The translations under genes and the position numbers were made by a program. A stretch of 64,000 bases of DNA from a virus, in the IMG/VR virus record IMGVR_UViG_3300048590_000360, positions 1-64,000 of that record; one strand, written 5' to 3'. This document shows, one piece after another, positions 4,281 to 48,603 of the stretch. Every line of letters begins with the position of its first letter. Within the stretch, counting starts at the first letter, position 1. The notes under the pieces are model-generated. The model worked only from the letters and a program-made list of their open reading frames with translations, was not told the origin of the DNA and made no database searches.

Positions 4281-4288
4281 CAAAGTTA
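4281..4288 (-). promoter_or_regulatory. -7 promoter box (rc TAACTTTG)
   Basis: TAnnTTTG match 14 nt upstream of ATG 4266. Confidence 0.4.
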
Positions 4289-10200: not shown

Positions 10201-12874
10201 ATTTCTCTTTCTGTTCCGCGTCAACAATATTCGTTTCATCTAATTGTTTGATAGCGTCTTTCAATTCCTCATTGTTAGACAATAAGTGCATCATTACTGC
10301 TGCATCGGATTCACTTTTTGCACCAGCAACGGTAGCTCTTTGAAGATTCTTGTCAAGAATTTCTAACCTTGACTTCATGGCCTGAGAATCTTCCTTCGAT
10401 AACCGTCCTGAATCAACTGCCTTATCAATTCTACGAAGCATATCTGACTTGTTTACTGCCGCATCATATTCTAACAGTAATTGTGTCGGGTGTACTTTTT
10501 TCTTAGCAGTGGCAACTTCATATATCCCTCGTGGGGCACCAATAGCCCACATGCCTAATGCAGAAAATGCTGCGGTCTTAAACACTTCATCGGCACGAAT
10601 CTCATCGTCAAAAACATCTTCACCCAATAGATTATTGGAAATATGATTAGTCAGTTTCTCTACTGATAATGACGCAAGTTCTTCAGGCACTTCTTTTAAC
10701 CCTTCCCTGTATATTGAATATAATGCACTATTGATAACGTCTTTCTTCGTTAATCTTGTTAAGTCAGTAATTCCATTCGGGGTAAGTAATCGTTTTAAAG
10801 TATTGTCAGTAATTGCCCTACCCTTTCCTGTAAGAATAAATGTTGAAGGGAAAATAGATTCAGCCATTGCCAATACAGTTCCTGCCGTATTTGCATACAA
10901 TAATGAAGTGGCGTACTGTGAATCAGGATTCATGTAATCTAATTTCTCCATGGCTTCATTGTAGTAATTACCCGTTGTCATTACATAGGATGAAGTCATT
11001 ATCCCTACCCTTGATGCTGCTTTGGCTGATAACCCTGCTAATTGGCCAACCTTTGTCACTCCTGCTGCCGGAATCATAATCGTCCCAATACCTACTAATG
11101 TATTGGAGAATTCTCTTGTTAAACCATTATTCACTTCGGTCTCAACGGTCCTTTCTAACCTTGCCCGTTTTGTTTCATCACTCATTTCTCCACCCGTAAC
11201 CATATTGTACAATCCTGACATCCCATCTTTAACGGTAATCAATCCGTCATTAATTCCTGTACCAATATCATCAACACGTCTCTCTAACCATGACATATTC
11301 TGATAGTCACGTTCACTGTTTCTTTTAATCTTTTCTAATGCCCTTTGGTCTGTTTCTGCTTGTTTGTAAGCGTTCAAAGTTTCAGGAGTGTCTTTATCCT
11401 TGATTACTGCCATTTCGTACCCTGCCAATAGATGTTTAAGGTACTTGTCGGCACGGTTATGTTTGTAGGTTAATTCAGCAATAGCCTGTTCTTTCTGTTC
11501 TTCTGGTGCATCTGACATATTGATTCGCGCCATTTCTTCAGCATATTCAACTGCCATTTCATTATTGTAATACTTAAAAGCAGATTCCACAAATTCCATA
11601 TCCTTAACTTGGTCATGGGATTTAGTGAATGATGCACTGGAAAAGTCATATCCCTGCTTTTCAATCTTACCTACAGTTTGTTGGTGTCTTTGTGCGTAAC
11701 TATGAAGTACATCGGCAAACACATCCCTTGCATTACTCTCTGAAGGGGTGAACTTTTCGGGGATATCACCAAGAACACCTTTGGCAATTCCCCCCAACTG
11801 CTGCACATTCTCCGGACTTTCACCTTCCACAATATTACCGAACACGTCAACAACAACTTTCTCTCTTGCTGTTTCTTGTTCTTCCTGAGACATATCTTCT
11901 AAAGATACTTTACTTCGTTGTTTTGTCGTTGGTTGGTCGTAAACGTAAAAGTTCACACCTTCATCTGGCATTGTGGTAATTGCCCTATCTATCACGTTTA
12001 TCTTCCCGTCAACGGCTTGCTTTGGTGCGGATATTCTTTGATTTAAGTCTTGTTGGTTAGAAACTACAGGCAAACCTTCCATTGGTTCTACTTTCACTTC
12101 ATCAGATGAAACAGTAAGTTTTGGAATTAACCTTTTATCAATAGTAGTCTTTGGCCTATCTTGTTCCTGTACTTCTGTAACGTCAAAGGTGGGTTTGTAT
12201 TTCTTGATATGCTTATCAGCCTTGTTTAAAATCTGTTGCTGTTTCTCATTAATCAATTCAGAATCCAAAAGATTGTATTTCTCTTTGACAAATCTGTTTA
12301 ACAGTCTTTCTTTCTCTTGTGGGTTGTTCTGAATTACTTCGGTACGTACACCATATACCTTTGCCGCTTCGTTCAAGTGGTCATTGTATTCTTCTTCGGT
12401 GAATCCTTTAATTATTTCACTGGTTTTACTTTCGGAGTATGTGTCTATCTCTTTAACTGATAACGGTCTTACTGCTTGTTCTTTAACTATACTTGGTGAA
12501 ACCAATGATTTAACCGCATCCATCTTGGGACGGACAGCGTTATTCGGCTCTTGAACAATTCTCTGAGCAGGTGTTTTACTTGTAGTAGAAGGGGAAACGG
12601 AAGGTGATACTGATGGGACTTCGGAACTTGATTCTTTTTTTTTTTCTGTAAGCTGTTCAACGGAGAATAATTCGGGGTACTTAGAATCTAATTCATTCCA
12701 ATCAGCATACTTTCCTGATGCTGCTGTGGTAGCGTATGAATGTAGAATTTTCTTATCATAAGATGATAATTCGGGATACTTGGCATCTAACTCATTCCAT
12801 GTTGCGTATTTTCCTGATGCTGCTGTGGCCGCATAAGAACGCAGTATTTTTTTATTGTCAGTGTCTTTTTCCAT
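4286..12874 (-). CDS. giant multidomain virion (internal/ejection-type) protein, 2862 aa
   Basis: Single uninterrupted ORF. N-terminal 2 x 33-aa tandem repeat, HEGIH (HExxH) at nt 8678-8692, DLDFD at nt 6008-6022, basic Ser/Arg-rich C-terminus. Follows two smaller proteins in the way T7 gp14-15-16 are arranged. Confidence 0.8.
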   Translation of the reverse strand: MEKDTDNKKILRSYAATAASGKYATWNELDAKYPELSSYDKKILHSYATTAASGKYADWNELDSKYPELFSVEQLTEKKKESSSEVPSVSPSVSPSTTSKTPAQRIVQEPNNAVRPKMDAVKSLVSPSIVKEQAVRPLSVKEIDTYSESKTSEIIKGFTEEEYNDHLNEAAKVYGVRTEVIQNNPQEKERLLNRFVKEKYNLLDSELINEKQQQILNKADKHIKKYKPTFDVTEVQEQDRPKTTIDKRLIPKLTVSSDEVKVEPMEGLPVVSNQQDLNQRISAPKQAVDGKINVIDRAITTMPDEGVNFYVYDQPTTKQRSKVSLEDMSQEEQETAREKVVVDVFGNIVEGESPENVQQLGGIAKGVLGDIPEKFTPSESNARDVFADVLHSYAQRHQQTVGKIEKQGYDFSSASFTKSHDQVKDMEFVESAFKYYNNEMAVEYAEEMARINMSDAPEEQKEQAIAELTYKHNRADKYLKHLLAGYEMAVIKDKDTPETLNAYKQAETDQRALEKIKRNSERDYQNMSWLERRVDDIGTGINDGLITVKDGMSGLYNMVTGGEMSDETKRARLERTVETEVNNGLTREFSNTLVGIGTIMIPAAGVTKVGQLAGLSAKAASRVGIMTSSYVMTTGNYYNEAMEKLDYMNPDSQYATSLLYANTAGTVLAMAESIFPSTFILTGKGRAITDNTLKRLLTPNGITDLTRLTKKDVINSALYSIYREGLKEVPEELASLSVEKLTNHISNNLLGEDVFDDEIRADEVFKTAAFSALGMWAIGAPRGIYEVATAKKKVHPTQLLLEYDAAVNKSDMLRRIDKAVDSGRLSKEDSQAMKSRLEILDKNLQRATVAGAKSESDAAVMMHLLSNNEELKDAIKQLDETNIVDAEQKEKLTKRLNQSQQALEDIFRNGKSAAQVFKDYSTNQYSGVIEKPEGKKDDSEPKKEEQVEEEVKPKEFTPKEKFIRDSMGLDGVDYDWVKERLETDTELSQEDKDDILTMIETEEGKEFFFDESMRLIETGKEIDPNELDTATGLRQGETPTPERLAELYIEHTSGEDYIGELIREYSIRRQDFIHYGDKNLIGQAIGRFWLTRKGRDGMPLDVIAQEISERAGQYVSEQDIIDYILSNPYKAKYQKVSKEARAVATMYENLTGKSLNRETAQKVVEKARDSSDKASKKDDKVINTLRKWTDDNTGVIDFEGLFEYINDENKYAVERDWMETPIEVLDMIKDKVGTEEGRKELQRIWDDSIGIYEDESMQTDYQKEVLKRKNEAEPITETEVEESVDFSELPLLPQRPKTVTAKNTKEIRQIAASMMKDKTSSQSTRRMAKWLPRIFQSLRSSMTFHYDADNFNKQFEKRAGKAIEKDGVVYAFADGDEIHVNMNAANPNLLTSLIHEGIHTVLSSPDKVKKLATELRTLLGSSNPELLAELDDFASQYDDTDRDIEFLTEGVARIVAGKFPDKMNILQKIADFINNLLGKLKTTKLYEANDIESVIKGIHKSFKSGTIITTDTPVQKVREQKFRERMEAQGHKWAKKKEKTPEQVAREYTNEWFVDRKWWLKKMGGDLSKLPHHYKMSENEVYQSYLDSLKPKVRPQKAKKTSTTLDTITPQEYNQAIINAQVKLQEGHGYDAVVKGLILHYGFTPSLAKMIATQGMMDTDMTVGEAVQLFWKNGLSISHVKHIAKERGWKEKQVGKMFRDTAKGFQTYLNTRQDMLDYGAKILTDKTTKAEFVKDVMNRYGLSKKEADELFKIAFKTVFQSGTWNNLSKNSAVKKMVNQRAKVTKERNKESAEKQRRKNEVKKKMKGIRKAMGSKTTRVFAEQKPILRDILKINPKYLDEKTFNEVFAPLIDKISTMVQGAKVKFDKDNEIFFVDNAGQEGMITNAEMESVLKVVQEVVQANYRDMLILKYGDNIKFDPTDTLEQVQDKIRKYNEENALSDDEKDEIDIEKRTALLNEAMQVIEEYKQAEQDGDLDGLDDSEKALINEILNSSPDMLSDRDIIELINTLNNAVANQNVDYAGALVETIRAAQTIEWLDKQSTHQIEGVLGKIKNVYFSTSQMMEAIMNSTTLGAKFAALSGVQEIHAGYGRSRRFIHSAWVKPLAKILKGNPELRSVENVIARGIIAYIIQHNGDANSDFRKRAEVLMNDAIAKQESKKKALIKEGEIIQKFLEKYVEPALATDNPSQAFIERVSSEQSGNWEIVQLGINTAAQFKGNLDKTLRAYDNKMLAAWDNYTPTATKTITKEASFDDVSYGEPGLDTKQAGTTIDRVKFMKMRKGRGLDLDFDSVVERKMMDSMYYIETIGARQRAEKIFNNSVFIDKTGEYASNVLLNKLIDSIKQHRNMMTGDGNEVIKEFTNVTKRIRDIGAVNALGSVLQFVVQVPSVYVRAAINLAFNPKVQFYYRQIPSNMPDSFYSKGTILERKSMEAGTKSDPVNQTIKKTASQSESAFMKFFDFITKNQATKGAGKVIDKSKELALWTLQNSDYWIAKKTWGAYYTKFLVEEKGIPLGEIDWDTQAKNPDAEASSYADQQIDRTQNISDFTKGSFLVQRGKNAWKDMFMNTVAPFSSFSFNARGTAMLNIQKLRRHHVNSKEWGEAMADMMGYFAEAVVFTGIKIIMLGALSKAIAESFVRAVVDDEDEELLEKMFKDKDVKEQAVQSLIQAYLDTAVGGFGSLIEGKARHGVNLVAGMIDEDYENKDLLPIYENETALGQLAFLFGSGSVVIENVANAAPYIEQFITGETDFVVKAPYKNEPAIIERVKLTEEERRIAGIIALDALARSFGITDSKAWTPAIRGLIRYQNNVMSKKYGDTDYTIETMRKGKKKESKSGGGRSYKRSVTTRSISTRSTSRRKVERNR
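12656..12853 (-). repeat. 2 x 99-bp imperfect in-frame tandem repeat at the 5' end of the giant gene
   Basis: Encodes KKILRSYAATAASGKYATWNELDAKYPELSSYD followed by KKILHSYATTAASGKYADWNELDSKYPELFSVE. Confidence 0.85.
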
Positions 12875-25948: not shown

Positions 25949-25990
25949 TAGATATTTCAGTTTTTGTACAACGATTTTGTAAATGTCCAT
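25949..25990 (-). pseudogene. truncated copy of the first 14 codons of the tyrosine recombinase gene
   Basis: rc ATGGACATTTACAAAATCGTTGTACAAAAACTGAAATATCTA (MDIYKIVVQKLKYL), then it diverges and stops after one more codon. Confidence 0.7.
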
Positions 25991-26035
25991 GCTGTAACCC
26001 CTTATTTTATTGGTATTGTTGTTATATGGTAGTTA
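25949..26035. repeat. 87-bp exact direct repeat, copy 1 (junction plus recombinase 5' end)
   Basis: Identical to 48213..48299. Ends in ggtaGTTA, followed by a different cassette. Confidence 0.9.
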
Positions 26036-26044
26036 TCGGCAACC

Positions 26045-26407
26045 CTAAGCGGACACCACAAACAATTCAGTTCCATATAGAGAATAGAAAATATTTTGTA
26101 GTTCGTGGACATATTGTAAGTCTGTTAAAACTAATTGACAAACAAAATTGCCTTGAATAAATCTAAATTTATCATCAGCAGTTGATATACCTACATTGTT
26201 GTCTTTGTTGTAAAATTTATCTTGTATTTTGCTGTTTGTAAATCCAAAATCGGTGAGCCATTTATCAGTTAGTTTTACAGGATAAAATGGTTTGTCTAAT
26301 TCATTTTGTAAGTACATTGCGAATAAAGAGCCATCCAACTTTATAATATCTTCGTTAAAAGAAACATAGTTTCCTACTCTTATTTGTGTTGCGTTTAAAT
26401 ATTTCAT
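26045..26407 (-). CDS. hypothetical cassette protein
   Basis: 120-aa ORF with ATG start. The stop lies 7 nt from the GTTATCG junction core. Confidence 0.6.
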   Translation of the reverse strand: MKYLNATQIRVGNYVSFNEDIIKLDGSLFAMYLQNELDKPFYPVKLTDKWLTDFGFTNSKIQDKFYNKDNNVGISTADDKFRFIQGNFVCQLVLTDLQYVHELQNIFYSLYGTELFVVSA

Positions 26408-26454
26408 TTTTTATTTGTTTAAATTGTTAATAATCATTCCGAAAGAAGGGCAGC

Positions 26455-26541
26455 CGATAACAGCGTATAAAGTAAACCGCCAATCCCCACCCACGTAGCC
26501 AACGCAATTGTCGGCTTCCCTTATACGCAAAAGCGTTAGCG
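26455..26541. repeat. attC-like structured repeat
   Basis: Ends CGATAAC-AGC ... GCAAAAGC-GTTAGCG. Stem gcgtataa (26463-26470) / ttatacgc (26521-26528). Confidence 0.55.
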
Positions 26542-26550
26542 GAAATGATT

Positions 26551-26793
26551 TTACCCACCCATATCTACAATAGTAGGTTTAATCGGTTCACCGCCAACCG
26601 AAGCGAATAGAGATAGTTTTTTACTTGGTTTACCATCTTCAACCATCCAAGCAATTGAACCGCAACAAGGCGTTGAACCTGTCCAGTTTTTTAATTGAGT
26701 TTTACATACGTTACATTCCACCCAAAAATCACTATCCGCTAACACATTATTTGCGTCAGTGGGGGTGTTGTTTTTCAAATCGTCGTTTTGCAT
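26551..26793 (-). CDS. small zinc-ribbon-like cassette protein
   Basis: 80 aa with CNVC ... CCGS. The first ~17 codons lie inside repeat 26737..26870. Confidence 0.55.
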   Translation of the reverse strand: MQNDDLKNNTPTDANNVLADSDFWVECNVCKTQLKNWTGSTPCCGSIAWMVEDGKPSKKLSLFASVGGEPIKPTIVDMGG

Positions 26794-26870
26794 ATTATTA
26801 AAATTTAGTTTTTCAAATTAACTGTGGTGGTGTAATGCCCCACCGAACGCAAATAATCGGCACGTTAGCA
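26737..26870. repeat. attC-like structured repeat, long subfamily (134 bp, downstream ATG in loop)
   Basis: Ends CGCTAAC ... GTTAGCA. Arms attatttgcgt (26746-26756) / acgcaaataat (26847-26857) and gtgggg (26759-26764) / ccccac (26838-26843). The stop of 26865..27107 lies inside gTTAgca. Confidence 0.55.
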
Positions 26871-27107
26871 GTCAGTTTGCCCCAAATCACCGTAAGGCTT
26901 TTGAAGTGCTTTACTACTAATAGCTATTTCTCCGTTAGGAAGTTCATTGCAATGGCAAACCGAACTGCTAACAGGCGGTTGGCGCAATACTTGTTTCATC
27001 GCTTCGATTAAAGTGTGGTACATTTCAGCATCGCTTACTTTGTCATTCTCGCTTTTCGGGTATCTATTGTCTATTACCCATTGTGCTATTTCTTGTATCG
27101 TTTTCAT
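26865..27107 (-). CDS. hypothetical cassette protein
   Basis: 80-aa ORF with ATG start. Confidence 0.55.
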   Translation of the reverse strand: MKTIQEIAQWVIDNRYPKSENDKVSDAEMYHTLIEAMKQVLRQPPVSSSVCHCNELPNGEIAISSKALQKPYGDLGQTDC

Positions 27108-27171
27108 ATCAAAATTTTGTTTTAATTATTCGTACTGCGCCAACCGCCAAACCGTTATAACCAATAGGGGT

Positions 27172-27369
27172 TCAGTCCTTCGATTTAACATTTCGGTTGG
27201 CGGTTTTCTTATTTTTTTGCACACGCTCTTTGGTTTTTTCAAAACCATTAGATTTTGATTCTCGTTCCAAAATATCCTGTGCCAAGTTTTTAAAATCCGT
27301 GTTCTCATCAATGGCTCTCTTGCTCAATGATTTTACACATTCATCTGATAAATCAAGTAGTTTTTTCAT
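27172..27369 (-). CDS. ribbon-helix-helix-like small protein
   Basis: MKKLLDLSDECVKSLSKRAIDENTDFKNLAQDILERE shows a beta-alpha-alpha pattern. It is the last gene of a three-gene unit. Confidence 0.5.
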   Translation of the reverse strand: MKKLLDLSDECVKSLSKRAIDENTDFKNLAQDILERESKSNGFEKTKERVQKNKKTANRNVKSKD

Positions 27370-27805
27370 ATCCTTTATTTAGTATTTTTCTACAACTTTC
27401 CGCGTCCTTTCCGTTTGGTTGGTGTTTTAGTTTCCACAAAGAACTACTTGCGTAATGTTTTGCCAAACTTTCGCACTTTTCAAATGGAACAATAGTATAG
27501 ATATACGAAGTAATCTCTATACTGCTTTCGGTATTACCGCCAAACATAGCTTCGCTTTCTTCAACACAACAAGATAAAACTGGTTCACTTTCATTATCTT
27601 CAAATTTTATCACTGAAAGTTCTTTAATTACATCACTTATTGTAGTAGATTTTAATTGTACATTCTTTTCTTTTTTATCAAACCAATGAATGTAATTACG
27701 ATGTAGTGTAGTAAAATCACGTTTTTTCAAAAGCTCAATAGCTTCATTCCTACTTTTAGTAGTTGATTTTAGGTAATGCTGATATACTATTTCTTCTTGT
27801 GTCAT
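27353..27805 (-). CDS. hypothetical cassette protein
   Basis: 150-aa ORF that overlaps the downstream RHH-like gene by 17 nt. Confidence 0.6.
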   Translation of the reverse strand: MTQEEIVYQHYLKSTTKSRNEAIELLKKRDFTTLHRNYIHWFDKKEKNVQLKSTTISDVIKELSVIKFEDNESEPVLSCCVEESEAMFGGNTESSIEITSYIYTIVPFEKCESLAKHYASSSLWKLKHQPNGKDAESCRKILNKGYEKTT

Positions 27806-27816
27806 AATCGTTATTT

Positions 27817-28107
27817 TTAAAGGGTTTTAAAGTAGTTAAGTAATTGATTAAAATACTTCCCGTAATACTCAATAGCATAGCCATTCATATAAGCAGGTTT
27901 TACACTTTCTCTTTGTGAGGCAACCACATTAATTCCTAAAGTTTTTGCTGCAAAATCAACAAAGTTTTCAAGTTTGGTGTCGAGCCATTTAATATCACAA
28001 TCCCTAAATTCTCCTTTATTTAATTGGTTTATTATTTTAGTAATCGGGTCTATTAAAGAAACTTCGATAATAAACTGGTCAATTGCTGTGTTGTTTGTTG
28101 CTTTCAT
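27817..28107 (-). CDS. hypothetical cassette protein
   Basis: 96-aa ORF. TATATTTG box 24 nt upstream. Confidence 0.6.
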   Translation of the reverse strand: MKATNNTAIDQFIIEVSLIDPITKIINQLNKGEFRDCDIKWLDTKLENFVDFAAKTLGINVVASQRESVKPAYMNGYAIEYYGKYFNQLLNYFKTL

Positions 28108-28131
28108 TTTGTTTCGTTTTTAATTCTGATA

Positions 28132-28139
28132 CAAATATA
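28132..28139 (-). promoter_or_regulatory. -7 promoter box (rc TATATTTG)
   Basis: Overlaps the first unit of the 3 x 9-bp repeat at 28135..28161. Confidence 0.5.
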
Positions 28140-28161
28140 TACCATATATACGATATATACA
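28135..28161. repeat. 3 x 9-bp tandem repeat (ATATATAC-N), operator-like
   Basis: atatatac at 28135, 28144 and 28153, with an exact 9-bp period. Confidence 0.8.
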
Positions 28162-28291
28162 AGTAAAAGTTTCAAATATTTTAAAACTAACTGATTTTCA
28201 AAGAGAATAATTTTTAAATCCCTCCCTAAAAAAATAAGAAAACTGCTGTTTCTGCTCCGAATTTGGCTTTGTGCTAAACAATCCCTACTGG

Positions 28292-28346
28292 TTATAACAG
28301 CACATTGGCGGCATTAAAACGACCGCCAATCTGCATCACGTTGTAT
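28292..28346. repeat. attC-like structured repeat (55 bp)
   Basis: Ends TTATAAC-AGC ... GCATCAC-GTTGTAT. Stem attggcgg (28304-28311) / ccgccaat (28323-28330). Confidence 0.55.
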
Positions 28347-28494
28347 GCAATTATGGCGCAAAAGACCAGGTAAATAGCCAAATATTTTTAGTAAATAGTG
28401 AGTTTAGGATTAGAAAATGACTTAATTTTTGTCAAGCCTTGCAAAGTAGATTTGCTGAAAAGTATTTTCAAAGCGAATTACGCTAAAAGGCTTG

Positions 28495-28502
28495 CAAAGG
28501 TA
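28495..28502 (-). promoter_or_regulatory. -7 promoter box (rc TACCTTTG) with TTTG 20 nt upstream, inside an ORF-free cassette
   Basis: rc TTTGACTTTGTCTTTTTTTTCTAATACCTTTG. No ORF of 20 aa or more lies downstream before repeat 28292..28346. Confidence 0.4.
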
Positions 28503-28688
28503 TTAGAAAAAAAAGACAAAGTCAAATTTTTATTCTAATACGATCATAAACTGCTATTTATTAAAGAGATGGCTTGGTTTGTAAAAGACTAATCTTATCC
28601 CTTTGGGGCATAAGACCAATATTTTTCAATCATTTAACTAGGTTTTTTGCGGCATAACTGGGACTGTTTTCATAACTTAGCCGAGTTA

Positions 28689-28772
28689 GAATAACAGCAC
28701 ACAACAACAGGTTTGTTCAATGCCTGCCGCCGGCGCAACACAGGCACTGCACAAACCTGCTATACGTTAGGT
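28689..28772. repeat. attC-like structured repeat
   Basis: Ends GAATAAC-AGC ... GCTATAC-GTTAGGT. Stem caggtttgt (28708-28716) / acaaacctg (28751-28759) plus an inner tgcctg/caggca pair. Confidence 0.6.
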
Positions 28773-28813
28773 GCAATAAAAAATAAATTTCCCACCGCAC
28801 CAAACTAACAACA

Positions 28814-29080
28814 TTAATCCTTCTTTTTAGAGTATTGAAAAACCAATTGGTTGGCAATGTGGTTAAACTCTAAATTGTTTTTGTCATCGCCTGTAATCTT
28901 ATTGAAAAGATGCGTAGGCATAATGTTTGCCAACGCGTGGAAAAAATGCGTAAGGTTATCGCCTTCTTGTAATTCTTGTTGGTCAATGTGAAAATCACTT
29001 TCGCTATCTTCATCAAAGAGTTCCGCAATTTTTCCACTTAACATTGCCGCATAATGTAAATGTTTTTCGGTCTGTGCCAT
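28814..29080 (-). CDS. hypothetical cassette protein
   Basis: 88-aa ORF with ATG start. Confidence 0.55.
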   Translation of the reverse strand: MAQTEKHLHYAAMLSGKIAELFDEDSESDFHIDQQELQEGDNLTHFFHALANIMPTHLFNKITGDDKNNLEFNHIANQLVFQYSKKKD

Positions 29081-29128
29081 AATTGAAATTTGTTTTAAAA
29101 GCCCACGCTAAATTTATTTTTTACAGAC

Positions 29129-29227
29129 ACCTAACAGCAGGTAGGCAAAATGCCGCTATGAGCCTGAGTGCTTTGATATTTACATTTGTGGTAAGCGTCA
29201 CTATCGCCTACCTGCAAACCGTTAGCG
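29129..29227. repeat. attC-like structured repeat
   Basis: Ends ACCTAAC-AGC ... GCAAAC-C-GTTAGCG. Perfect 10-bp stem gcaggtaggc (29137-29146) / gcctacctgc (29206-29215). Confidence 0.6.
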
Positions 29228-29234
29228 GAAAATG

Positions 29235-29570
29235 CTACATCCACTCATCCAACGGAACATTTTTAGTTTTAAATTTTTTGCCTTGAACTGTTAGCACGTA
29301 GTCAAAATTTGCTCTTTGCCAATTACTTTGGTGTATCAACCCCATTCTAACCAATCGAAACAAAATAGACGAATTAAATGTGAACTCACCTTTTGCAGAA
29401 CAACAAGTAACTGTTGATGTACAAGATTGTGTTATCAATTGCCATCCATTTTGAAGACAAAAAACAATCATATTTTGTTTTGGAGTTAGTTTTAATTTAA
29501 CCGCATCATCCGCTAACACGTGTTTTGCGTCAGGCGGGGTTTCGTGGTTAATTGCAGTTTGTGTTTTCAT
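29235..29570 (-). CDS. hypothetical cassette protein
   Basis: 111-aa ORF. The N-terminal ...PPDAKHVLADD is encoded inside repeat 29511..29643. Confidence 0.55.
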   Translation of the reverse strand: MKTQTAINHETPPDAKHVLADDAVKLKLTPKQNMIVFCLQNGWQLITQSCTSTVTCCSAKGEFTFNSSILFRLVRMGLIHQSNWQRANFDYVLTVQGKKFKTKNVPLDEWM

Positions 29571-29643
29571 AATTTAATTTTGTTTAAGTTGAAAGTTTGC
29601 GGTTTTCAAACCCGCCCGAACGCAAAGCACCTTAACGTTGTAG
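29511..29643. repeat. attC-like structured repeat, long subfamily (133 bp, downstream ATG in loop)
   Basis: Ends CGCTAAC ... AAC-GTTGTAG. Arms gtgttttgcg (29520-29529) / cgcaaagcac (29621-29630) and ggcggg (29533-29538) / cccgcc (29611-29616). Confidence 0.5.
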
Positions 29644-29655
29644 GCAATTGCCTTG

Positions 29656-29889
29656 CTATAAAAGCGTATTGCCACATTTTCCGCAAAAGTCTTGAACTTT
29701 ACTGTTTACCCTGTTATTTTCGCAATCGCAAGGCAACTGTTCGCTTCGCCCTACAACAGGGGCTATATGTAATACTTGGATCATTGCTTCGTAAATAACT
29801 TCAAGTTGATTTGAGTTAAATTCTTGCTCAACGCTTGTAAAGTTTCCAAATGTATTTAATGCTTCTAATAATATTTTTTCTTTATCCAT
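29656..29889 (-). CDS. small cassette protein with C-terminal CxC...CxxC
   Basis: 77 aa ending ...LPCDCENNRVNSKVQDFCGKCGNTLL. Confidence 0.5.
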   Translation of the reverse strand: MDKEKILLEALNTFGNFTSVEQEFNSNQLEVIYEAMIQVLHIAPVVGRSEQLPCDCENNRVNSKVQDFCGKCGNTLL

Positions 29890-29940
29890 TTCTATTAAGT
29901 TTTATCGTTAATAAATCGTACTACATATAGCCCCAAACCG

Positions 29941-30204
29941 TTAGCTGCAAGCTGGCAGACTAATCCACGCAATAACGCTTCCGTTTGTATGTTGTGGTCG
30001 CATATCATTAACCCAAACAATTACCCGATTATCTTCAAGCCTTAAATGACATACATCCATTTTACCATAGTCGGTTAATATTAGCACTGGTTTACCAAAT
30101 TCGGGTAATTGTTTTTCTACTGGAATCCAGCCAGCAGCTAACACAGTATTGCCGACAATTGCGGGTTCTGTGGTAGGTTCAACTTTTTGTTTTTTATTGT
30201 TCAT
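29941..30204 (-). CDS. DUF551-like cassette protein
   Basis: GWIPVEKQLPEFGKPVLILTD ... VIAWISLP resembles DUF551 (match by eye only). The stop lies inside gTTAgct. Confidence 0.5.
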   Translation of the reverse strand: MNNKKQKVEPTTEPAIVGNTVLAAGWIPVEKQLPEFGKPVLILTDYGKMDVCHLRLEDNRVIVWVNDMRPQHTNGSVIAWISLPACS

Positions 30205-30269
30205 TTGTGCAAATTTTGAAGTTTTTTAATTCTAATTCCGCAACTGCGGCAATACTCGGAACGTTAGCA
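30136..30269. repeat. attC-like structured repeat, long subfamily (134 bp, downstream ATG in loop)
   Basis: Ends AGCTAAC ... GTTAGCA. Arms agtattgccg (30145-30154) / cggcaatact (30247-30256). Confidence 0.5.
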
Positions 30270-30275
30270 CCAATA

Positions 30276-30509
30276 CTACGAGTGTGCTGCAAAAACCTGA
30301 TTATCCCTTAATCGTATTTGTTCTCTTATCTTTTCGGCTAATTGTTCTACTTCGTCAGAATAAGAACATATAACAGTTCCGTCCTCTTTTTTTAAGGCTA
30401 TAGGCATTGCGTTTGCGTATAAGTCAAATAGTGCCTTAAATAGTTCTTTTCTGTGGCTATCATTCAAAATAGCTTCTCTTTGTTTTTGGTAATATTTTTG
30501 GTCTTTCAT
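30276..30509 (-). CDS. hypothetical cassette protein
   Basis: 77-aa ORF. The conserved leader AGTACGGATTATTAAC lies upstream. Confidence 0.5.
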   Translation of the reverse strand: MKDQKYYQKQREAILNDSHRKELFKALFDLYANAMPIALKKEDGTVICSYSDEVEQLAEKIREQIRLRDNQVFAAHS

Positions 30510-30543
30510 TCTATTTATATTTTGTTGTTAATAATCCGTACTG

Positions 30544-30608
30544 GTGCTAACAGCAAATAAGCAAAACTCCGCTATCGCTACGCTTCGCCTATTTGCAAAC
30601 CGTTAGCG
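30544..30608. repeat. attC-like structured repeat (65 bp)
   Basis: Ends GTGCTAAC-AGC ... GCAAAC-C-GTTAGCG. Stem gcaaataagc (30553-30562) / gcctatttgc (30587-30596), with one A-C (G-T on the minus strand). The stop of 30603..30920 lies inside gTTAgcg. Confidence 0.6.
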
Positions 30609-30920
30609 GTCATTGCCGCCAAGCCCAAGTCCCTTAATTATCCTTTCCATAAAGTCGCCACTTTTTTTCACATCGCAAGTTTCGTTAAACCATTTTTCGT
30701 CCTCTTCATTTTCAGGAAAAACAATGTTGCACCTCATAGCAGTTTCCCTTAGAAGCGGCAACGAACCGCTAACATCGGGTTGGGCTAAATTTTTATTGGC
30801 TACGAGTTGCGCGTATTCGGAAAGGATAATTGATACTTTCCCTTTCGTGTAGAACTCTTCCCCTTCATCATTAGTATAGTCTGGTGTCCACATTTTCAAA
30901 ACTTCCATTTCTCTTGTCAT
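30603..30920 (-). CDS. hypothetical cassette protein
   Basis: 105-aa ORF with ATG start. Confidence 0.55.
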   Translation of the reverse strand: MTREMEVLKMWTPDYTNDEGEEFYTKGKVSIILSEYAQLVANKNLAQPDVSGSLPLLRETAMRCNIVFPENEEDEKWFNETCDVKKSGDFMERIIKGLGLGGNDR

Positions 30921-31022
30921 GCTATTTATATTTAGTCGTTAATAATCCGCCAATAAAAACTTCGCCAACCCGTCCACCGTTATAGCACATTAAAACGATG
31001 CTATAACAGCGCATAAGAGAAG

Positions 31023-31286
31023 TTAAGGCTTAGATAGTGCTTCGAGCAAAGATTCTGCATGAAGAACAGCCAACTCACTAATACCACTTGGTGAGAATGT
31101 CATACTTCCTCCTTGTGTCATTCCTCCGTTACAATTTGCTAATAATCCTTGCATCGCTAATCCTGCAAAATACTCCTTCTTAGTTAAACCATATTGGGTA
31201 AAACTTCCATTAGGATCAAGCATAGAATCTATGTATTCTTTACCTTTAATTCTAGCATTCGTTTGCTGTTCTGTTTCCTTTTCCAT
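31023..31286 (-). CDS. hypothetical cassette protein
   Basis: 87-aa ORF. The stop lies inside gTTAagg. Confidence 0.55.
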   Translation of the reverse strand: MEKETEQQTNARIKGKEYIDSMLDPNGSFTQYGLTKKEYFAGLAMQGLLANCNGGMTQGGSMTFSPSGISELAVLHAESLLEALSKP

Positions 31287-31397
31287 AATCTAATTTTTTT
31301 AATTTGTTTCGCCTTAACTTCTCCTATGCGCCTACCGTTAGCGGCAAGCGTAGGACACCACTCCGAATAAACAGCATCCTACACAAACCGAAAAAGG

Positions 31398-31772
31398 CTA
31401 CACAATTTCTCTCAAGTGCCGTAAATTGCTTTCTGCCTTTTCATTTAGGTCATTCAAACTGTAAAGCAAACGAATGATTTCTTCCGTTACGCTTTCGGGC
31501 TGTTTTTCTTCCATAGCTTCTTTAAGCGTTGAAGGTTCGTCATACCTTTTAATCGTTTGCAATTTGCTTTTAGTTTCGCATACAATACCATCGTAGCGAT
31601 TTACGGCACTTTGTAACCTTTCGATAATCACATTCAATTCAGGTTGATGAACCGAAGTAGGCATATCTTCTGTTAATACTTCTGGCGCAATTTGAATTAC
31701 TTTTTCATAATGCACTTCTCCACCCTGAGTTACTTTCAGAATGTCACCGATTTTCAATTTACTTTTGTCCAT
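31398..31772 (-). CDS. hypothetical protein
   Basis: 124-aa ORF with ATG start. Confidence 0.6.
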   Translation of the reverse strand: MDKSKLKIGDILKVTQGGEVHYEKVIQIAPEVLTEDMPTSVHQPELNVIIERLQSAVNRYDGIVCETKSKLQTIKRYDEPSTLKEAMEEKQPESVTEEIIRLLYSLNDLNEKAESNLRHLREIV

Positions 31773-35989: not shown

Positions 35990-38080
35990 TCACCTTATTC
36001 TTCGTTTAGTGAATAATGGTTTGGGTTTTGTTCCTTCCTTCATTGATTGTGAAATCTTTTTTCTGGTAAAGTCTTTGGCACCAATATAGGCTAACATAGA
36101 TGCTACCGTTAAGTCATACTTAGTCCAATCTCCAGGTTCAAATTTTAACCAATCATGTAGTAAATCTTCCAAACTACAAGTTCCGTTAAGACTGCGTACT
36201 ATATCTACTTCAGGGATACCTAATTTAGTTAATTGTGTTTCTATAGTTATTTCTCCAATAAAATCATGGATATACCCATGTAGTCTATCCATCAATGTCT
36301 CTCTGACAAACTCTCCTGCTGTACTAATCCCTTCAACGGGTTTTGATGCTTTGTCTCTATTGAGTATTGATTGTTTTGTTTTTTTTATAAATCCCCCGTG
36401 TCCGGATTCCCGAAGGTAATTAATAAGTCCTGGCTTTTGGTTTTCTATGAGTAAGTCCCAAGAATAGAACATTGCTACTTTCAACGCATCATCCCAAAAA
36501 AGTTTCGGGGTTTCTCTCCTGTAACAGTATGAGAACACGAAACAGTTACTTTTGAATATATCCATTGGTTCATAAGCTCTAAACCCTACAATCGCAGCGT
36601 TAGACCTTCTTGTATCTACAGTGGTTTTATGGTCGAATGGGTCAACACCTATACATCCTGATTCTGTAAATTTAGGTTTCCTTCCTGTCATATCCTGTGT
36701 GAAACAGTTTCTGTCTTGTGGTAATGGCATCCACCCCACTTTGAATAATCCTTCAGAATCGTCCACAAATCTTACTACAGTTCTTTCGTCATTTTCAAAT
36801 AGAAAATTTCCTACTCTATAAGGAACCGATACAACTGAGGCATTGTGTTCCAACTGTTCGTATATCTTATCAGCAGGAAACCCCTCACCTTTACTGTCAA
36901 GGATAAATGCTTCCATGACGTTTGTAGGGTATTTTCTCTTTTCCTCATTGAGTTTTGTACCTGTTAGTTTAGTTCTTTTGCTTTTAAGATAGTCCAAGGC
37001 ACCAATGGTTTCCGTTTCTCCTTCATTGTTAGTGAATGGTTTTAATGGTGTTTCAATTACTGAATATCCATATTCATCAATGAATCCACTTAGTCCGTGT
37101 TGCGCTGGTTTGAAGTATCTGTATAATCCTGAAATAGTCCTTCCATCGTCTTTCCTATTGTTTGCGTCTGAATCCCTCCATAGATTTGCAACAGGTTCAC
37201 CCCCTGCCCTGTTTGTTTCTTCTACAGTAGATGAAAGGTATGCTTTACCTACAATGGTTTTTCCAACTTCTAAGCATGGTTTCAAAATGTACCACCGTGA
37301 TTCTGGGTTTGCATTTGATGGTTTTCCTATCTCATCCTGATAGTTCCTGAATTGTCGTGTTCCATCGTATGCTTCTTCTTTAGATGATTCATAATCAATG
37401 AAACTATTAAGTACGTTTTTGTAGGTTTTCTTTTCGCCTTTTGTGCTTCTGCGTGCGGGTTCTTCAAACTTTAATGCTTTTTGTGGTGAAGTCTGCCCTG
37501 AGTCAATAGGTTTCCAAAAGTCAGGTAATTTCTTCCAACTTTTTACCATCTTCAGGAAGATACGTAAAGCATCAATGTCTGTCTTAGATTGAATCCCTGA
37601 TTGCTCATCCTTCACTAAGGACGTTGCTTCATATAGGATACATGAACCTTTATATGTTTTTCCTGAACGTCTATCGGAAATGAATAATAATCCGTAACAG
37701 TTTTTATCTTTAACACATAAGTCCCAAACGTAAAAGAAGTCTCTGTCAGATTCGCGCCATTCCGGAAGGTCTTTGCCAATGTACCAATATGTGAGGTAAA
37801 AATAATGTAACCCTGTTATGTATTCTATCTTCCCATTATTATAAAAGAAGATACCGTTTTTTCTTCTGTCAAGTTCCCTAATGTATAACTGTTCTTGTTC
37901 TTGTACTGATAAGGCATTCCAACGGAGATGGTCTTTCGGTGCTTTCCACTTGTGATTGTACTTTTGGTTAGAATTAAGGATTTGAGAAACTTCTGGTGGT
38001 TCTGGTAGGTGTATTTTGTATTTATACCCTGTCCCATCGTCAATCTCCCTGATTTTTTTAAAATCCTTAACCGATTCCAT
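35990..38080 (-). CDS. terL: terminase large subunit
   Basis: 696 aa. Walker A-like SDRRSGKT, Walker B-like NYQDEIG, and nuclease-domain motif CIGVDPFDH. Confidence 0.85.
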   Translation of the reverse strand: MESVKDFKKIREIDDGTGYKYKIHLPEPPEVSQILNSNQKYNHKWKAPKDHLRWNALSVQEQEQLYIRELDRRKNGIFFYNNGKIEYITGLHYFYLTYWYIGKDLPEWRESDRDFFYVWDLCVKDKNCYGLLFISDRRSGKTYKGSCILYEATSLVKDEQSGIQSKTDIDALRIFLKMVKSWKKLPDFWKPIDSGQTSPQKALKFEEPARRSTKGEKKTYKNVLNSFIDYESSKEEAYDGTRQFRNYQDEIGKPSNANPESRWYILKPCLEVGKTIVGKAYLSSTVEETNRAGGEPVANLWRDSDANNRKDDGRTISGLYRYFKPAQHGLSGFIDEYGYSVIETPLKPFTNNEGETETIGALDYLKSKRTKLTGTKLNEEKRKYPTNVMEAFILDSKGEGFPADKIYEQLEHNASVVSVPYRVGNFLFENDERTVVRFVDDSEGLFKVGWMPLPQDRNCFTQDMTGRKPKFTESGCIGVDPFDHKTTVDTRRSNAAIVGFRAYEPMDIFKSNCFVFSYCYRRETPKLFWDDALKVAMFYSWDLLIENQKPGLINYLRESGHGGFIKKTKQSILNRDKASKPVEGISTAGEFVRETLMDRLHGYIHDFIGEITIETQLTKLGIPEVDIVRSLNGTCSLEDLLHDWLKFEPGDWTKYDLTVASMLAYIGAKDFTRKKISQSMKEGTKPKPLFTKRRIR

Positions 38081-47462: not shown

Positions 47463-48254
47463 TTAGATTGGTAAATTCACTTTTGAAAGCAACTGATTTG
47501 AAACGTGCGTGTATATTTCCGTGGTTTTTATATTTGAGTGTCCTGCAATCTTTTGAATAATCCTTGTGTCTGTACCTGATTCAAGCATAGCGGTAAATGA
47601 TGAATGCCTGAGAAGGTGGAAATGATAATCCTTGCCGATGTATTTTTTGACAATTTGGTTGCAACTTGCAGATGAATATTGATTACTGAATTGCCCGTTA
47701 AAAAGGTATTCTGTTGGTTTATATTCTTTGTAGTATTCTCTTAGCGTGGTGAGTATTGTTTGGCTTAGTGGCACGATTCTATCCTTTCTACCTTTGGCGT
47801 TTTTGATGTAAATTATCATTCTACTGGAATCAATGTCGGTTATCTTTAGGTTGATTATTTCTGAAACTCTAAGTCCTACACTAAATGCCAATGATATAAT
47901 TGCTTTATGCTTTAAGTTTTCGATGTTATTGATAGACTTAATAAGGTGTTCTCTATCAATTACTCTTGGTAGTTTCTTTTCGGAACGGGGTCTGTTAAAA
48001 TGAACCTTGTCGTATTTTTTGTTTAATCCGTATTTGTATAAGAATCTTATTGCGTTAATAATTTGATTCTGTTGTGATACTGATTTGAACGGATAATTGT
48101 CTAAATACTGCTGAAACTCTTTTGCGGAAACTCTTGATATATGTACTTTACTTTTTGATAGGTATTCGTCAATATAATATAAGTAAACTTTTTGTGTGTT
48201 TTCTGAATAATTTAGATATTTCAGTTTTTGTACAACGATTTTGTAAATGTCCAT
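47463..48254 (-). CDS. tyrosine recombinase/integrase, short XerC/D-like (263 aa)
   Basis: Catalytic signature GLRVSE (Arg I), KGRKDRIVPL, HLLRHS (His-x-x-Arg), GHSNIKTTEIYTHV (His ... Tyr). No obvious extra insertion of the IntI type. Confidence 0.9.
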   Translation of the reverse strand: MDIYKIVVQKLKYLNYSENTQKVYLYYIDEYLSKSKVHISRVSAKEFQQYLDNYPFKSVSQQNQIINAIRFLYKYGLNKKYDKVHFNRPRSEKKLPRVIDREHLIKSINNIENLKHKAIISLAFSVGLRVSEIINLKITDIDSSRMIIYIKNAKGRKDRIVPLSQTILTTLREYYKEYKPTEYLFNGQFSNQYSSASCNQIVKKYIGKDYHFHLLRHSSFTAMLESGTDTRIIQKIAGHSNIKTTEIYTHVSNQLLSKVNLPI

Positions 48255-48299
48255 GCTGTAACCCCTTATTTTATTGGTATTGTTGTTATATGGTAGTTA
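48213..48299. repeat. 87-bp exact direct repeat, copy 2 (recombinase codons 1-14 plus 45-nt upstream junction)
   Basis: Identical to 25949..26035. Ends in ggtaGTTA of the GTTAGGT core (48296-48302). Confidence 0.9.
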
Positions 48300-48308
48300 G
48301 GTGCAATG

Positions 48309-48597: not shown

Positions 48598-48603
48598 GTA
48601 ATG

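Follow-up and report, generated by a model that had tools for sequence, protein, structure and literature searches.

All coordinates are those of the window, by which we mean the whole stretch of 64,000 nucleotides of viral DNA that was analyzed. The genes discussed lie on its minus strand, which we call the sense strand. The window contains a family of at least 19 hairpins organized in two arrays. Array B directly adjoins the gene of an Xer-like tyrosine recombinase and array A lies 16 kb from that gene. The main features are as follows.

26456-31342, minus strand: array A, 12 hairpin sites of 53-341 nt
26456-26540, 26738-26869, 26967-27159, 28293-28345, 28700-28771, 29130-29226, minus strand: array A, sites 1-6
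29512-29642, 29752-29945, 30137-30268, 30546-30607, 30768-30984, 31002-31342, minus strand: array A, sites 7-12
48515-51249, minus strand: array B, at least six hairpin sites, adjoining the recombinase gene on its upstream side (sense direction)
48515-48596, 49141-49270, 49944-50037, 50569-50662, 50832-50962, 51060-51249, minus strand: array B sites
50303-50312, minus strand: one extra 5' box in array B
47463-48254, minus strand: Xer-like tyrosine recombinase, 263 aa, with PF13495 and PF00589
48255-48301, minus strand: simple attI-like site, CCTAAC followed by TACCATATAACAACAATACC..., in the interval from the last cassette to the recombinase ATG
25949-26035, minus strand: second copy of the attI-like site with the first 14 recombinase codons, 87 nt, 100% identical; closes array A

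A scan of the whole window with Rfam 15 gave no match at gathering score, and a tRNA gene search of the window found none. Three hairpins of array A had been described in a sequence-only reading as elements of 133-134 bp with long-range arms. These elements are real and are 131-132 nt long. That reading did not contain two other sites of the same class, which lie in array B and are listed here with the first three.

26738-26869, minus strand: first long attC-like hairpin, 132 nt; 5' box GCTAAC at 26869-26864, 3' box GTTAGCGG at 26743-26736, ATG 26793 within the loop
29512-29642, minus strand: second long hairpin site, 131 nt; variant 5' box tACAAC (CAAC, not TAAC), 3' box GTTAGCGG, ATG 29570 within the loop
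30137-30268, minus strand: third long hairpin site, 132 nt; 5' box GCTAAC, 3' box GTTAGCTG, ATG 30204 within the loop
49141-49270, minus strand: fourth site of the 130-nt class; loop ATG 49203 of a 199-aa ORF (48604-49203)
50832-50962, minus strand: fifth site of the 130-nt class; loop ATG 50891 of a 73-aa ORF (50670-50891)

The fourth site has variant boxes (CAAC/GTTG) that covary with the end of its cassette. Five longer elements (26967-27159, 29752-29945, 30768-30984, 51060-51249, and 31002-31342) enclose at least 40 codons or a whole ORF, and these were likewise absent from the earlier list.

Along the sense strand, the first element has the layout GCTAAC-gtgccg-ATTATTTGCGT-tc-GGTGGGG ... 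CCCCCAC-tg-ACGCAAATAAT-gt-GTTAGC, the second tACAAC-gttaag-GTGCTTTGCG-ttc-GGGCGGG ... CCCGCC-tga-CGCAAAACAC-gt-GTTAGC, and the third GCTAAC-gttccg-AGTATTGCCG-CAGTTGCGG ... CCGCAATTG-t-CGGCAATACT-gt-GTTAGC. All three contain a second inner stem that had not been listed before. The predicted fold agrees with the claimed one and passes from the box stem through the arm to the second stem, leaving an open loop of ~73 nt. Folding z-scores for the sense strand of the three elements were –3.8, –2.0, and –3.8 as RNA and –2.7, –0.1, and –3.2 as DNA, and antisense DNA folded more weakly than sense. The ATGs at 26793, 29570, and 30204 are 50, 53, and 62 nt 5' of the sense-strand GTTA box and therefore 16-20 codons lie inside each element, in agreement with the claim that the loop holds the start codon and first codons of the next ORF. 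In the 80-aa ORF the loop ATG is the only Met before residue 50. The distal arm and GTTAGC box are in frame with the loop ATG, from which they would be read as ...N-V-L-A-D, ...H-V-L-A-D, and ...T-V-L-A-A. By BLASTP the three proteins have nothing in common past residue ~20, the sole similarity being that of residues 6-20 of the 80-aa protein to residues 7-21 of the 111-aa protein. The description of shared N-terminal peptides on otherwise unrelated bodies was borne out.

We compared the window with 80 other IMG/VR viral contigs that encode recombinases 60-70% identical to the one here and that comprise 777 kb of related loci. These were reached via an alignment of recombinase homologs. Single-protein scans of viral contigs with a 197-aa protein and with terminase found nothing, a megablast search of window positions 24-34 kb against cultured phages gave no match, and exact-protein look-ups of the 111-aa ORF, the 87-aa ORF, and the recombinase matched nothing beyond contigs of the same phage. 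The system is carried by a phage that probably infects Bacteroidota. Polaribacter phage Freya, whose integrase is 39% identical and has a variable set of small ORFs upstream of it, contains no such hairpin array. Across the 777 kb, the box-and-arm pattern matched 291 times on the recombinase-sense strand and 2 times on the antisense strand; shuffled sequence gave 4 matches, and these hairpins are far beyond chance. Their position is also strongly biased, with 286 upstream of the recombinase gene and 5 downstream, although the downstream sequence searched was longer. About 110 of the 291 belong to the length class of 120-139 nt.

Covariation was examined in 62 diverse elements of the ~130-nt class, aligned by MAFFT with no fitting. 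In this alignment 91% of cells paired, compared with 54% after shuffling and 38-47% when the partner was slid by 1-3 columns. Compensatory changes were found at 17 of the 18 pairs, and the covariation of the stems is strong. The sense strand is the better folder in 231 of 251 elements and has 655 G.T pairs vs 174 on the antisense strand. The spacers consist of G plus 4 nt on the 5' side and 1-2 nt on the 3' side, and there is a fixed irregularity, a conserved G.T at alignment columns 25/131, in 59 of the 62 elements.

The sites are parts of larger units that are bounded by the box sequences. For the three elements the predicted cassettes are as follows, with a slash marking the predicted TAA/C crossover.

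26536-26864, minus strand: predicted cassette with TAA/C bounds, containing the site and the 80-aa ORF (26551-26793); 3' box GTTAGCGG complementary to its own end, CCGCTAAC
29222-29637, minus strand: predicted cassette containing the site and the 111-aa ORF (29235-29570); 3' box GTTAGCGG pairs with its own end, CCGCTAAC
29941-30263, minus strand: predicted cassette containing the site and the 87-aa ORF (29941-30204); 3' box GTTAGCTG pairs with its end, CAGCTAAC, and the stop codon of the ORF is the TAA of the next box

Homology breakpoints between contigs occur at the invariant TAAC, where common blocks start with TAACG and finish with TAAC. Only blocks longer than one site are informative for this, and a first histogram was swamped by the repeated hairpins. 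One cassette is recombinase-proximal in contig L023 and internal in L058 and L059, and a loop-ATG cassette common to L021 and L053 has both borders at TAAC. The 80-aa gene of the window is also present in an unrelated contig (L001), where the common block stops exactly at GCTAACG. Contigs L016 and L017 represent the same phage, with flanks that are 99% identical, yet from a conserved stop codon to CACATAAC, 75 nt 5' of the recombinase ATG, their arrays are wholly different; this is the one indirect sign of cassette excision and insertion by the recombinase. Because the borders lie in the 5' TAAC of each hairpin, the hairpin and its ORF travel as one cassette. Some rearrangements break within loops and not at TAAC (in L001 the proximal arm is missing, and L017 has only the proximal half plus 15 codons in common with L016).

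Pairing between boxes defines the same unit. The 4 nt 3' of GTTA pair with the 4 nt 5' of the next TAAC in 154 of 216 cases, compared with 9 of 216 for the flank of their own TAAC and a random expectation of 4%. All 19 cassettes in the window follow this next-box pairing over 8-10 nt, including the covarying CAAC/GTTG variants. The cassette is therefore TAA/C-hairpin-ORF-TAA, and the outer GCTAAC and GTTAGC that had been paired as one element are boxes of different cassettes. Because the cassette ORF is on the opposite strand from that in integrons, each gene has its own hairpin at its 5' end. Judged from sequence, the next-box complementarity is the signature of site-specific circularization.

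The recombinase belongs to a family of more than 5,600 homologs, and its putative catalytic R-K-H-R-H-Y positions are invariant among 27 of them. Against the integron-integrase model TIGR02249 it scored 150 bits in two stretches and did not reach the cut-off of 265. Its best NCBIfam match was archaeal XerA (169 bits, below the cut-off of 220), and the scores for other Xer models were 134 vs a cut-off of 335 for XerC and 133 vs 330 for XerD. By these scores the enzyme is a relative of XerA, XerC, and XerD and an equivalog of none. In an alignment to VchIntIA (2a3v), residues 14-179 correspond to IntI 16-185 and residues 206-259 to IntI 260-313, which leaves 26 aa where IntI has 74. The missing segment is the IntI-specific insertion, which reads the extrahelical bases of folded attC. 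Because of the TIGR02249 score and the missing insertion, we rejected a canonical IntI integron. The attI-like site beside the gene is a non-hairpin sequence with the consensus nnnnTAAC followed by TAtnATATAT, which is conserved 45-70 nt 5' of the recombinase ATG in ~70 loci.

With this anatomy, covariation, strand bias, recombinase linkage, and these cassette borders observed, we consider it likely (roughly 80%) that the three elements are long-loop attC-like sites of a phage integron-like cassette system that uses the Xer-like recombinase encoded at 47463-48254. On the sense strand, a site has the anatomy n'n'n'n'TAA/C-G-nnnn-arm-(second stem)-loop-(second stem')-arm'-T-GTTAnnnn, with strand exchange catalyzed by this enzyme inside the invariant TAAC. 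Because of the position of this exchange, the mobile unit would be C-hairpin-GTTAnnnn-ORF body-n'n'n'n'TAA, and the box stem of 8-10 bp would be complete only in the circular cassette. Insertion would occur at the simple attI-like site (TAAC followed by TAtnATATAT...) just 5' of the recombinase gene. Since the ORFs are on the strand with the polarity of the attC bottom strand, each site precedes its own ORF. In the ~130-nt class, the terminal loop contains the ATG with the first 12-27 codons behind it and an A/U-rich leader ahead of it, and reading would continue via arm', the T, and GTTAnnnn into the body. The outcome would be unrelated proteins with site-dictated N-terminal extensions (here ...VLAD/VLAA). 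Points against this reading are the missing IntI insertion, the rearrangements that break within loops, and the many ~130-nt sites that lack a loop-started ORF. We infer that the folded strand is DNA; the excess of G.T pairs on the sense strand suits RNA equally.

In these gene-dense arrays, a test for an ATG in the element gave 58% for real sites and 49% for random 130-nt windows. Loop starts were judged instead from leader families, signal peptides, and the frame of the ORF. In 65 non-redundant cases the loop ATG shares its frame with the body, and in 52 of the 65 GTT is read as a codon. Other phages have near-identical leaders on unrelated proteins, with 59 pairs of leaders similar at ≥60% identity, none of which have homologous bodies. 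Several leaders resemble lipoprotein signal peptides that run across arm' and the box, e.g. MKKFKISTSAAIAVYA followed by MLVAVIFCGC. These data suggest that the loop ATG is used as a start. A point against is that the leaders show a modest codon-position signal, with 185/150/249, 61/33/75, and 142/54/105 differences at the three positions.

Alternatively, the stems may act mainly in mRNA, where the hairpin would gate or couple initiation or be an RNase III-type processing or stability element. In the coupling variant, the hairpin around the start codon would be opened by a ribosome that terminates at the 5'-box TAA. This idea is consistent with the folded strand being mRNA-sense, since with RNA parameters the sense strand is more stable in 226 of 251 elements and has 1016 G.U pairs vs 579, and with the RNA z-scores of the three elements. 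At 67 of 281 sites, and in three cases in the window, the preceding ORF stops at the 5'-box TAA, which also agrees with this idea. However, the same stems are found in the ~52-nt and 80-100-nt classes, where ORFs starting inside the element are rare (16 of 62 and 10 of 97, respectively), and 62 of 69 short hairpins have a fixed 11-nt loop, TCGTTTTAATG, that contains no start codon. In the long class the ATG is in the open A/U-rich loop, outside the stem, and ~42% of the ~130-nt sites (105-145 nt) have no loop-started ORF. A role in mRNA also leaves unexplained the cross-ORF complementarity, the homology breaks at TAAC, the attI-like site, and the linkage to the recombinase. RNA gating cannot be the general role of the hairpins, and we regard a mainly mRNA-based function as unlikely.

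It is less probable still that the hairpins are selfish or structural repeats (MITE/REP-like repeats, terminators, or shuffling substrates similar to T4 PeSLs) and that the neighboring recombinase has no relation to them, being simply the phage's integrase or dimer resolvase. Such repeats would explain intergenic palindromes that recur among small accessory genes, the distance of array A from the recombinase gene, and the breakpoints within certain loops. They would not explain the extreme bias in strand and position that the hairpins of 80 contigs show with respect to the recombinase gene, the closing of array A by its own attI-like copy and recombinase gene fragment, or the next-box complementarity. 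Among the ORFs of 150 aa or more that were scanned with Pfam, the Xer-like enzyme was the sole recombinase or transposase match. In a scan for sigma-70-type signals, the three loops were free of promoter-like sites and of terminator-like T tracts, and 26300-31500 as a whole had no terminator-like site, and on this result, which covers sigma-70-type signals only, terminators and sigma-70 promoters in the loops were rejected. Repeats of the MITE/REP type were also considered and rejected. The loops contain a motif, TTTGAAA...TTTAAAT, that fitted no promoter type. T4-type PeSLs work via homologous recombination, and we know of none with a dedicated recombinase, AAC/GTT crossover boxes, or a circular-cassette signature. 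Like the hairpins here, PeSLs (PMC2839356, PMC4122927) are recurrent stem-loops that carry expression signals, lie on either side of small accessory ORFs in hyperplastic phage regions, and mediate modular shuffling. By contrast, the PeSL pattern of a sigma-70-type promoter plus a terminator was not found here.

We give very little credence to the literal form of the earlier proposal, in which a resident, attI-like long site donates its ATG and leader to inserted cassettes, because, even though near-identical leaders do precede unrelated bodies and L016 and L017 have a 100% identical proximal half plus 15 codons joined to different bodies, the 5' TAAC borders indicate that site and ORF body move jointly, the box 3' of each hairpin pairs with the end of that same cassette, the 80-aa gene has retained ATG, leader, distal arm, and GTTAGC in L001, a foreign context, and the actual platform site is the separate non-hairpin sequence beside the recombinase gene. 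The part of the proposal that stands is that the element would supply a start and a site-encoded leader; the part that does not is the attI-like role, since the site belongs to the cassette and not to the platform. In attI1, an embedded start (ORF-11) extends or translates the first cassette only and lies in the platform. Both cases have a start codon in a recombination site that leads to an N-terminal extension or translation start, but here the start is in each cassette's own site and travels with the cassette.

The attC-like reading has several parallels in integrons. These also have imperfect hairpins of very variable length with outer AAC...GTT boxes, covarying arms, and a variable loop, a crossover in the conserved box, and a site that is whole only in the circular cassette. 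Their arrays likewise are next to a tyrosine recombinase gene and a simple attI-like site, and their sites form families that are similar within a lineage despite differing ORFs. There are also clear differences. The enzyme here is XerA-like, falls short of the integron-integrase cut-off, and has no IntI insertion. In a canonical integron the ORFs run in the direction of the attC top strand, each ORF has its site on the 3' side, and reading of the array leads away from intI, whereas here the ORFs are on the opposite strand with the site 5' of the ORF and are directed toward the recombinase gene. In canonical attC sites, 5-6 nt are left unpaired on either side as a central spacer and the extrahelical bases are at fixed positions, a geometry that differs from the asymmetric spacers (5 vs 1-2 nt), conserved G.T, and 11-nt minimal loop seen here. 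The cassette-specific box stem of 8-10 bp, the phage carrier, and the possibility of a start codon and leader within the site are other differences. XerCD recombines the folded single-stranded attP of CTX-type phages, by which the whole phage genome enters the host dif site. That reaction also involves an Xer-type enzyme that lacks the IntI insertion and acts on a one-strand hairpin, but to our knowledge it involves no cassette arrays and no phage-encoded enzyme. The sense-strand TAACG polarity is that of the cloned bottom-strand attC oligonucleotides listed in PMC9892861. In their work on virulent-phage CALINs, which are groups of attC sites that lack an integrase, Qi et al. (2023) predicted P12002L_attC1 as an attC site, and it was the single tested site not recombined by IntI1 (PMC9892861). 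This site (TGCTAACGGCTACGGCTAAACGGTCGTTTTAATGCCGTTTTAGCCATTGTTAGGC) has the box-spacer-arm layout and the loop TCGTTTTAATG of our short class (PMC9892861). That study reports no dedicated recombinase, attI-like site, inverted cassette logic, or start-in-loop sites (PMC9892861), and we found no account of such a phage cassette system in the literature.

Identical hairpins also occur on unrelated bodies with homology that stops right after GTTA, and this is not explained by a single crossover at TAAC. The standard frame, with GTT as a codon, would permit a second exchange at GTTA onto any ORF body. We therefore suggest, tentatively and as a possibility on which we would not yet rely, that a large family of uncultured phages, probably of Bacteroidota, has its own integron analog with an Xer-like enzyme in which hairpin-site recombination evolved in the absence of the IntI insertion, and that the long sites are portable expression modules swapped at GTTA. 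Each module would consist of the recombination site, an untranslated leader, the ATG, and a leader peptide. If true, GTTA swapping would account for identical leaders on unrelated proteins and would be a natural model for the acquisition of sites by cassettes.

A phage cassette system of this kind would extend integron-type gene capture beyond IntI and beyond bacterial and archaeal chromosomes. A dedicated form, widespread among phages, would exist on another branch of the Xer/IntI clade, which bears on the evolution of single-strand hairpin recombination. Sites would be embedded in coding sequence and would dictate the N-termini of many small accessory proteins, so gene callers and start-site predictions for such phages should account for site-encoded leaders. 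The TAAC and GTTA joints, recurrent leaders, and 'empty' cassettes would provide a data-rich system for studying the origin of cassettes and their sites, and structure-specific sites that tolerate translation could serve as tools. Cassettes elsewhere encode a Lar-like restriction-alleviation protein, lipoproteins, and two proteins that, from motifs recognized in their sequences, we take to be DNA methyltransferases.

The window is a phage genome, with genes for a large terminase subunit (35990-38080), a portal protein (60758-63160) and virion proteins. Nearly all of its genes lie on the minus strand, here called the sense strand. No tRNA genes or Rfam matches were found in the window, nor was DNA-level similarity of the window to any cultured phage. 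The minus strand also contains an ORF of 2,862 aa at 4286-12874. A scan for the pattern [TAAC, short spacer, arm ... arm', short spacer, GTTA] located two arrays of hairpin sites, and the gene for a 263-aa tyrosine recombinase (Pfam PF13495 and PF00589) directly adjoins the second. The features are as follows.

26456-31342, array A, 12 sites by pattern scan
48515-51249, array B, at least 6 sites by pattern scan
47463-48254, minus strand, recombinase gene
48255-48301, attI-like site, the window copy of a conserved non-hairpin sequence
26738-26869, long element with the start of an 80-aa minus-strand ORF (26551-26793) in its loop
29512-29642, long element with the start of a 111-aa minus-strand ORF (29235-29570) in its loop
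30137-30268, long element with the start of an 87-aa minus-strand ORF (29941-30204) in its loop

Homologues of the recombinase number more than 5,600. The best 120 of these span 263-287 aa (263-268 in nearly all cases) and, leaving out the query, are 67-76% identical. In all contexts examined, the gene lies at the 3' end of a run of co-oriented small ORFs in phage-like contigs. We retrieved 80 IMG/VR loci with an alignment of recombinase homologues. In these, the hairpin pattern occurred 291 times on the recombinase-sense strand compared with 2 times on the opposite strand and 4 times in shuffled sequence. Relative to the recombinase gene, 286 hairpins were upstream and 5 downstream despite more downstream sequence having been searched. 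Site sizes were multimodal (61 at 50-59 nt, 93 at 80-99, 110 at 120-139 and 12 at 190-239), so the 133-134 bp subfamily proposed in the sequence-only reading does exist as a size class and is widespread. In a set of 185,579 species genomes, the family turned up solely on four short contigs of Bacteroidota MAGs, which points to phages of Bacteroidota as its carriers.

The sequence-only reading had placed the three long elements and their arms correctly. On the sense strand, each has a 5' box, a 6-nt spacer, a 10-11-nt arm, a second stem of 6-9 bp and a loop of about 73 nt, followed by the complements of the second stem and arm, then GT and the 3' box GTTAGC. The loops do contain the ATGs claimed for them (26793, 29570 and 30204). 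Because these lie 50, 53 and 62 nt upstream of the GTTA box, the distal arm and box would be translated (...NVLADS, ...HVLADD and ...TVLAAG). Sequence comparison bore out that the three proteins are unrelated past their shared N-terminal residues. Two further sites of the same size had been overlooked (49141-49270 and 50832-50962), as had five longer sites enclosing 40 or more codons or a whole ORF.

Folding of the three elements gave the expected structure, with RNA z-scores of -3.8, -2.0 and -3.8, and as DNA the sense strand folded better than the antisense. Sixty-two diverse sites of 120-134 nt were then aligned with MAFFT with no fitting to any structure. RNAalifold predicted 18 pairs from this alignment, 17 of them with compensatory changes; the arms thus covary in homologs. 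Paired cells made up 91% compared with 54% in shuffles and 38-47% when partners were slid by 1-3 columns, and the covariation score was 0.86 versus 0.20 in shuffles. A G.T pair is conserved in 59 of the 62 elements. At 231 of 251 sites the better fold was that of the sense strand, in which 655 G.T pairs were counted compared with 174 in the antisense. The molecule that folds may be DNA or RNA. Three paralogous small proteins (26865-27107, 29656-29889 and 50973-51194; ...EAMKQVLRQPPV / EAMIQVLHIAPV / ETIMQALGLAHV...) each start in a site of about 190 nt. The distal arms of these sites differ in sequence and keep their complementarity to the upstream arm, so that a coding segment covaries with a non-coding one.

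Entirely different arrays lie between flanks of 99% identity in two contigs (L016 and L017), and the differing stretch runs from a conserved stop codon to CACATAAC, 75 nt before the recombinase ATG. Blocks common to otherwise unrelated arrays run from the TAACG of one hairpin up to the TAAC of the following one. One cassette is adjacent to the recombinase in contig L023 and internal in L058 and L059; another, with an ORF starting in a 130-nt loop, is common to L021 and L053 and has both borders at TAAC. The 80-aa gene of the window recurs at 99.3% identity in an unrelated contig (L001), in a block that ends exactly at GCTAACG. In 154 of 216 cases, the 4 nt that follow GTTA can pair with the 4 nt preceding the next hairpin's TAAC; pairing with the flank of the site's own TAAC is seen in 9 of 216 (random expectation 4%). 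Within the window, complementarity to the next box extends over 8-10 nt in 19 of 19 cassettes, and the variant boxes CAAC/GTTG covary. Four lines of evidence thus agree on where the cassette borders lie. A cassette has the form TAA/C-G-nnnn-arm-loop-arm'-T-GTTAnnnn-body-n'n'n'n'TAA, and only circularisation completes its box stem, which is integron logic.

About 70 loci have a conserved non-hairpin sequence, nnnnTAAC/TAtnATATAT, 45-70 nt upstream of the recombinase ATG, and this appears to play the part of attI. Array A is closed by an 87-nt copy (25949-26035, minus strand) that is 100% identical to 48213-48299. It spans the attI-like site and the first 14 recombinase codons, beyond which the sequences diverge, and resembles an additional platform whose recombinase gene is truncated. 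The Polaribacter phages Freya_1 to Freya_10 vary in length (44.0-48.9 kb). Their integrase is 39% identical and is located at position 83 to 4180, which suggests that small ORFs in a block of varying length precede it. Ahead of its ATG is a sequence, GCTAACacccctATAACAACAATAag, similar to the attI-like site of the window; no hairpin array is present in positions 1-4962 of Freya_10 (MT732472).

In the circular cassette, the hairpin loop and the body are variable segments with the long stem between them. Short sites have the ORF in the body and, as their loop, a fixed 11-mer, TCGTTTTAATG (62 of 69 short hairpins), which occurs 88 times in sense and 0 times in antisense (28293-28345; loci L019-L098). 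The arrangement is reversed at 31002-31342, where an entire 87-aa ORF (31023-31286), stop codon included, lies between 20-nt arms. The body that follows this hairpin (30984-31007) is 'empty', being merely the 11-mer within GTTATAGCA-TCGTTTTAATG-TGCTATAAC; 15 such bodies occur elsewhere. In the classes of about 130 and 190 nt, the ORF begins in the loop, crosses arm', T and GTTAnnnn, and enters the body.

At 65 non-redundant sites of 105-145 nt, a loop ATG shares its frame with a body longer than 25 codons. GTT is read as a codon in 52 of these, and the three sites of the window use the minority frame G-TTA-GCx. Leader families recur (e.g. MKDLKHIKRFNESEENLNISD/VS..., M..DNKNTELDNTDKKLHISD/V... 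and ...NANV/LLADS), and none of the 59 leader pairs with at least 60% identity has homologous bodies. Some leaders are lipoprotein-like signal peptides spanning arm and box. Such peptides must be N-terminal, which argues for use of the loop ATG as the start, and we infer this use for the loop starts. Codon-position bias in leaders is modest and, when homologous cassettes are compared, the loop has changed more rapidly than stems or body, so most leaders look like tolerated spacers rather than functional domains.

The initial observation is thus real and its interpretation right in part. The suggestion that the element supplies a start and leader to incoming cassettes holds in that the leader is site-encoded and common to unrelated proteins, but the site is the cassette's own rather than a platform of the attI type. 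The outer boxes that had been paired as one element belong to two different cassettes. The strand that folds better is the one present in the mRNA, so gating of translation initiation by the RNA hairpin may occur as a side effect. However, the same stems exist without an enclosed start, the ATG is in an open loop, and an RNA role accounts for none of the recombination signatures. The data, all at the sequence level, support a phage-borne integron analogue whose long sites would carry the translation start of their own cassette.

The TAACG reading of the sense strand is that of cloned bottom-strand attC oligonucleotides (supplement, PMC9892861). The phage ORFs are therefore inverted relative to the integron convention: they point to the recombinase gene, and each has its own site at its 5' end. 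The best model match of the recombinase is archaeal XerA (169 bits, cut-off 220). Identity as IntI was rejected (150 bits versus a cut-off of 265 for the integron-integrase model), and VchIntIA has 74 residues where the phage recombinase has 26. Positions taken as catalytic R, K, H, R, H and Y do not vary among 27 homologues. Catalysis by the recombinase is presumed. Full-text literature searches found no description of this phage cassette system; the nearest account, by Qi et al. (2023; PMC9892861), describes attC clusters of virulent phages that lack an integrase. One of its sites, P12002L_attC1, has the layout of the phage hairpin family and shares its 11-nt loop; of the sites tested there, it alone was not recombined by IntI1 (PMC9892861). 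The cultured Polaribacter phage P12002L has two further sites of the same architecture; it is absent among the matches listed for the recombinase.

Homology between hairpins often stops right after GTTA, and identical hairpins are present on unrelated bodies. A single TAAC crossover does not predict these two patterns, which would be expected from a further exchange at the GTTA box or if cassettes arose by a common process. Some breakpoints are inside loops. L016 8840-8948 and L017 4677-4785 have an identical proximal half-site, ATG and 15 codons on two different ORF bodies. The L017 copy is without the distal arm and 3' box, so this breakpoint is inside the loop and not site-specific. A loop motif, TTTGAAA...TTTAAAT, was noted. 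A scan for sigma-70-type signals found no promoters in the loops of the three elements and no terminators in 26300-31500.

No Pfam match above threshold was obtained for the ten window cassette ORFs scanned, one of which had a weak match to DUF551 (19 bits, cut-off 22). In other phages, a cassette with a Lar-like restriction-alleviation protein (Pfam match) is at L016 9707-9940, and lipoproteins are among the cassette products. The ORFs from about 484 onward in L040 and from about 3881 onward in L047 (384 and 283 aa) we take, by recognised motifs, to be DNA methyltransferases. The cargo of these phages suggests anti-defence or host-interaction roles. The cassette at 28346-28699, between sites 28700-28771 and 28293-28345, is without a sense-strand ORF; its sole candidate is 46 aa on the opposite strand (28398-28538), and it may be non-coding or inverted cargo. 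Two near-identical small ORFs (49266-49472 and 51266-51451; MSKRISLKLTDKNDWLVEAI...) each end just before a site with the 5' box GGAGCATAAC; they represent a cassette duplicated within array B.
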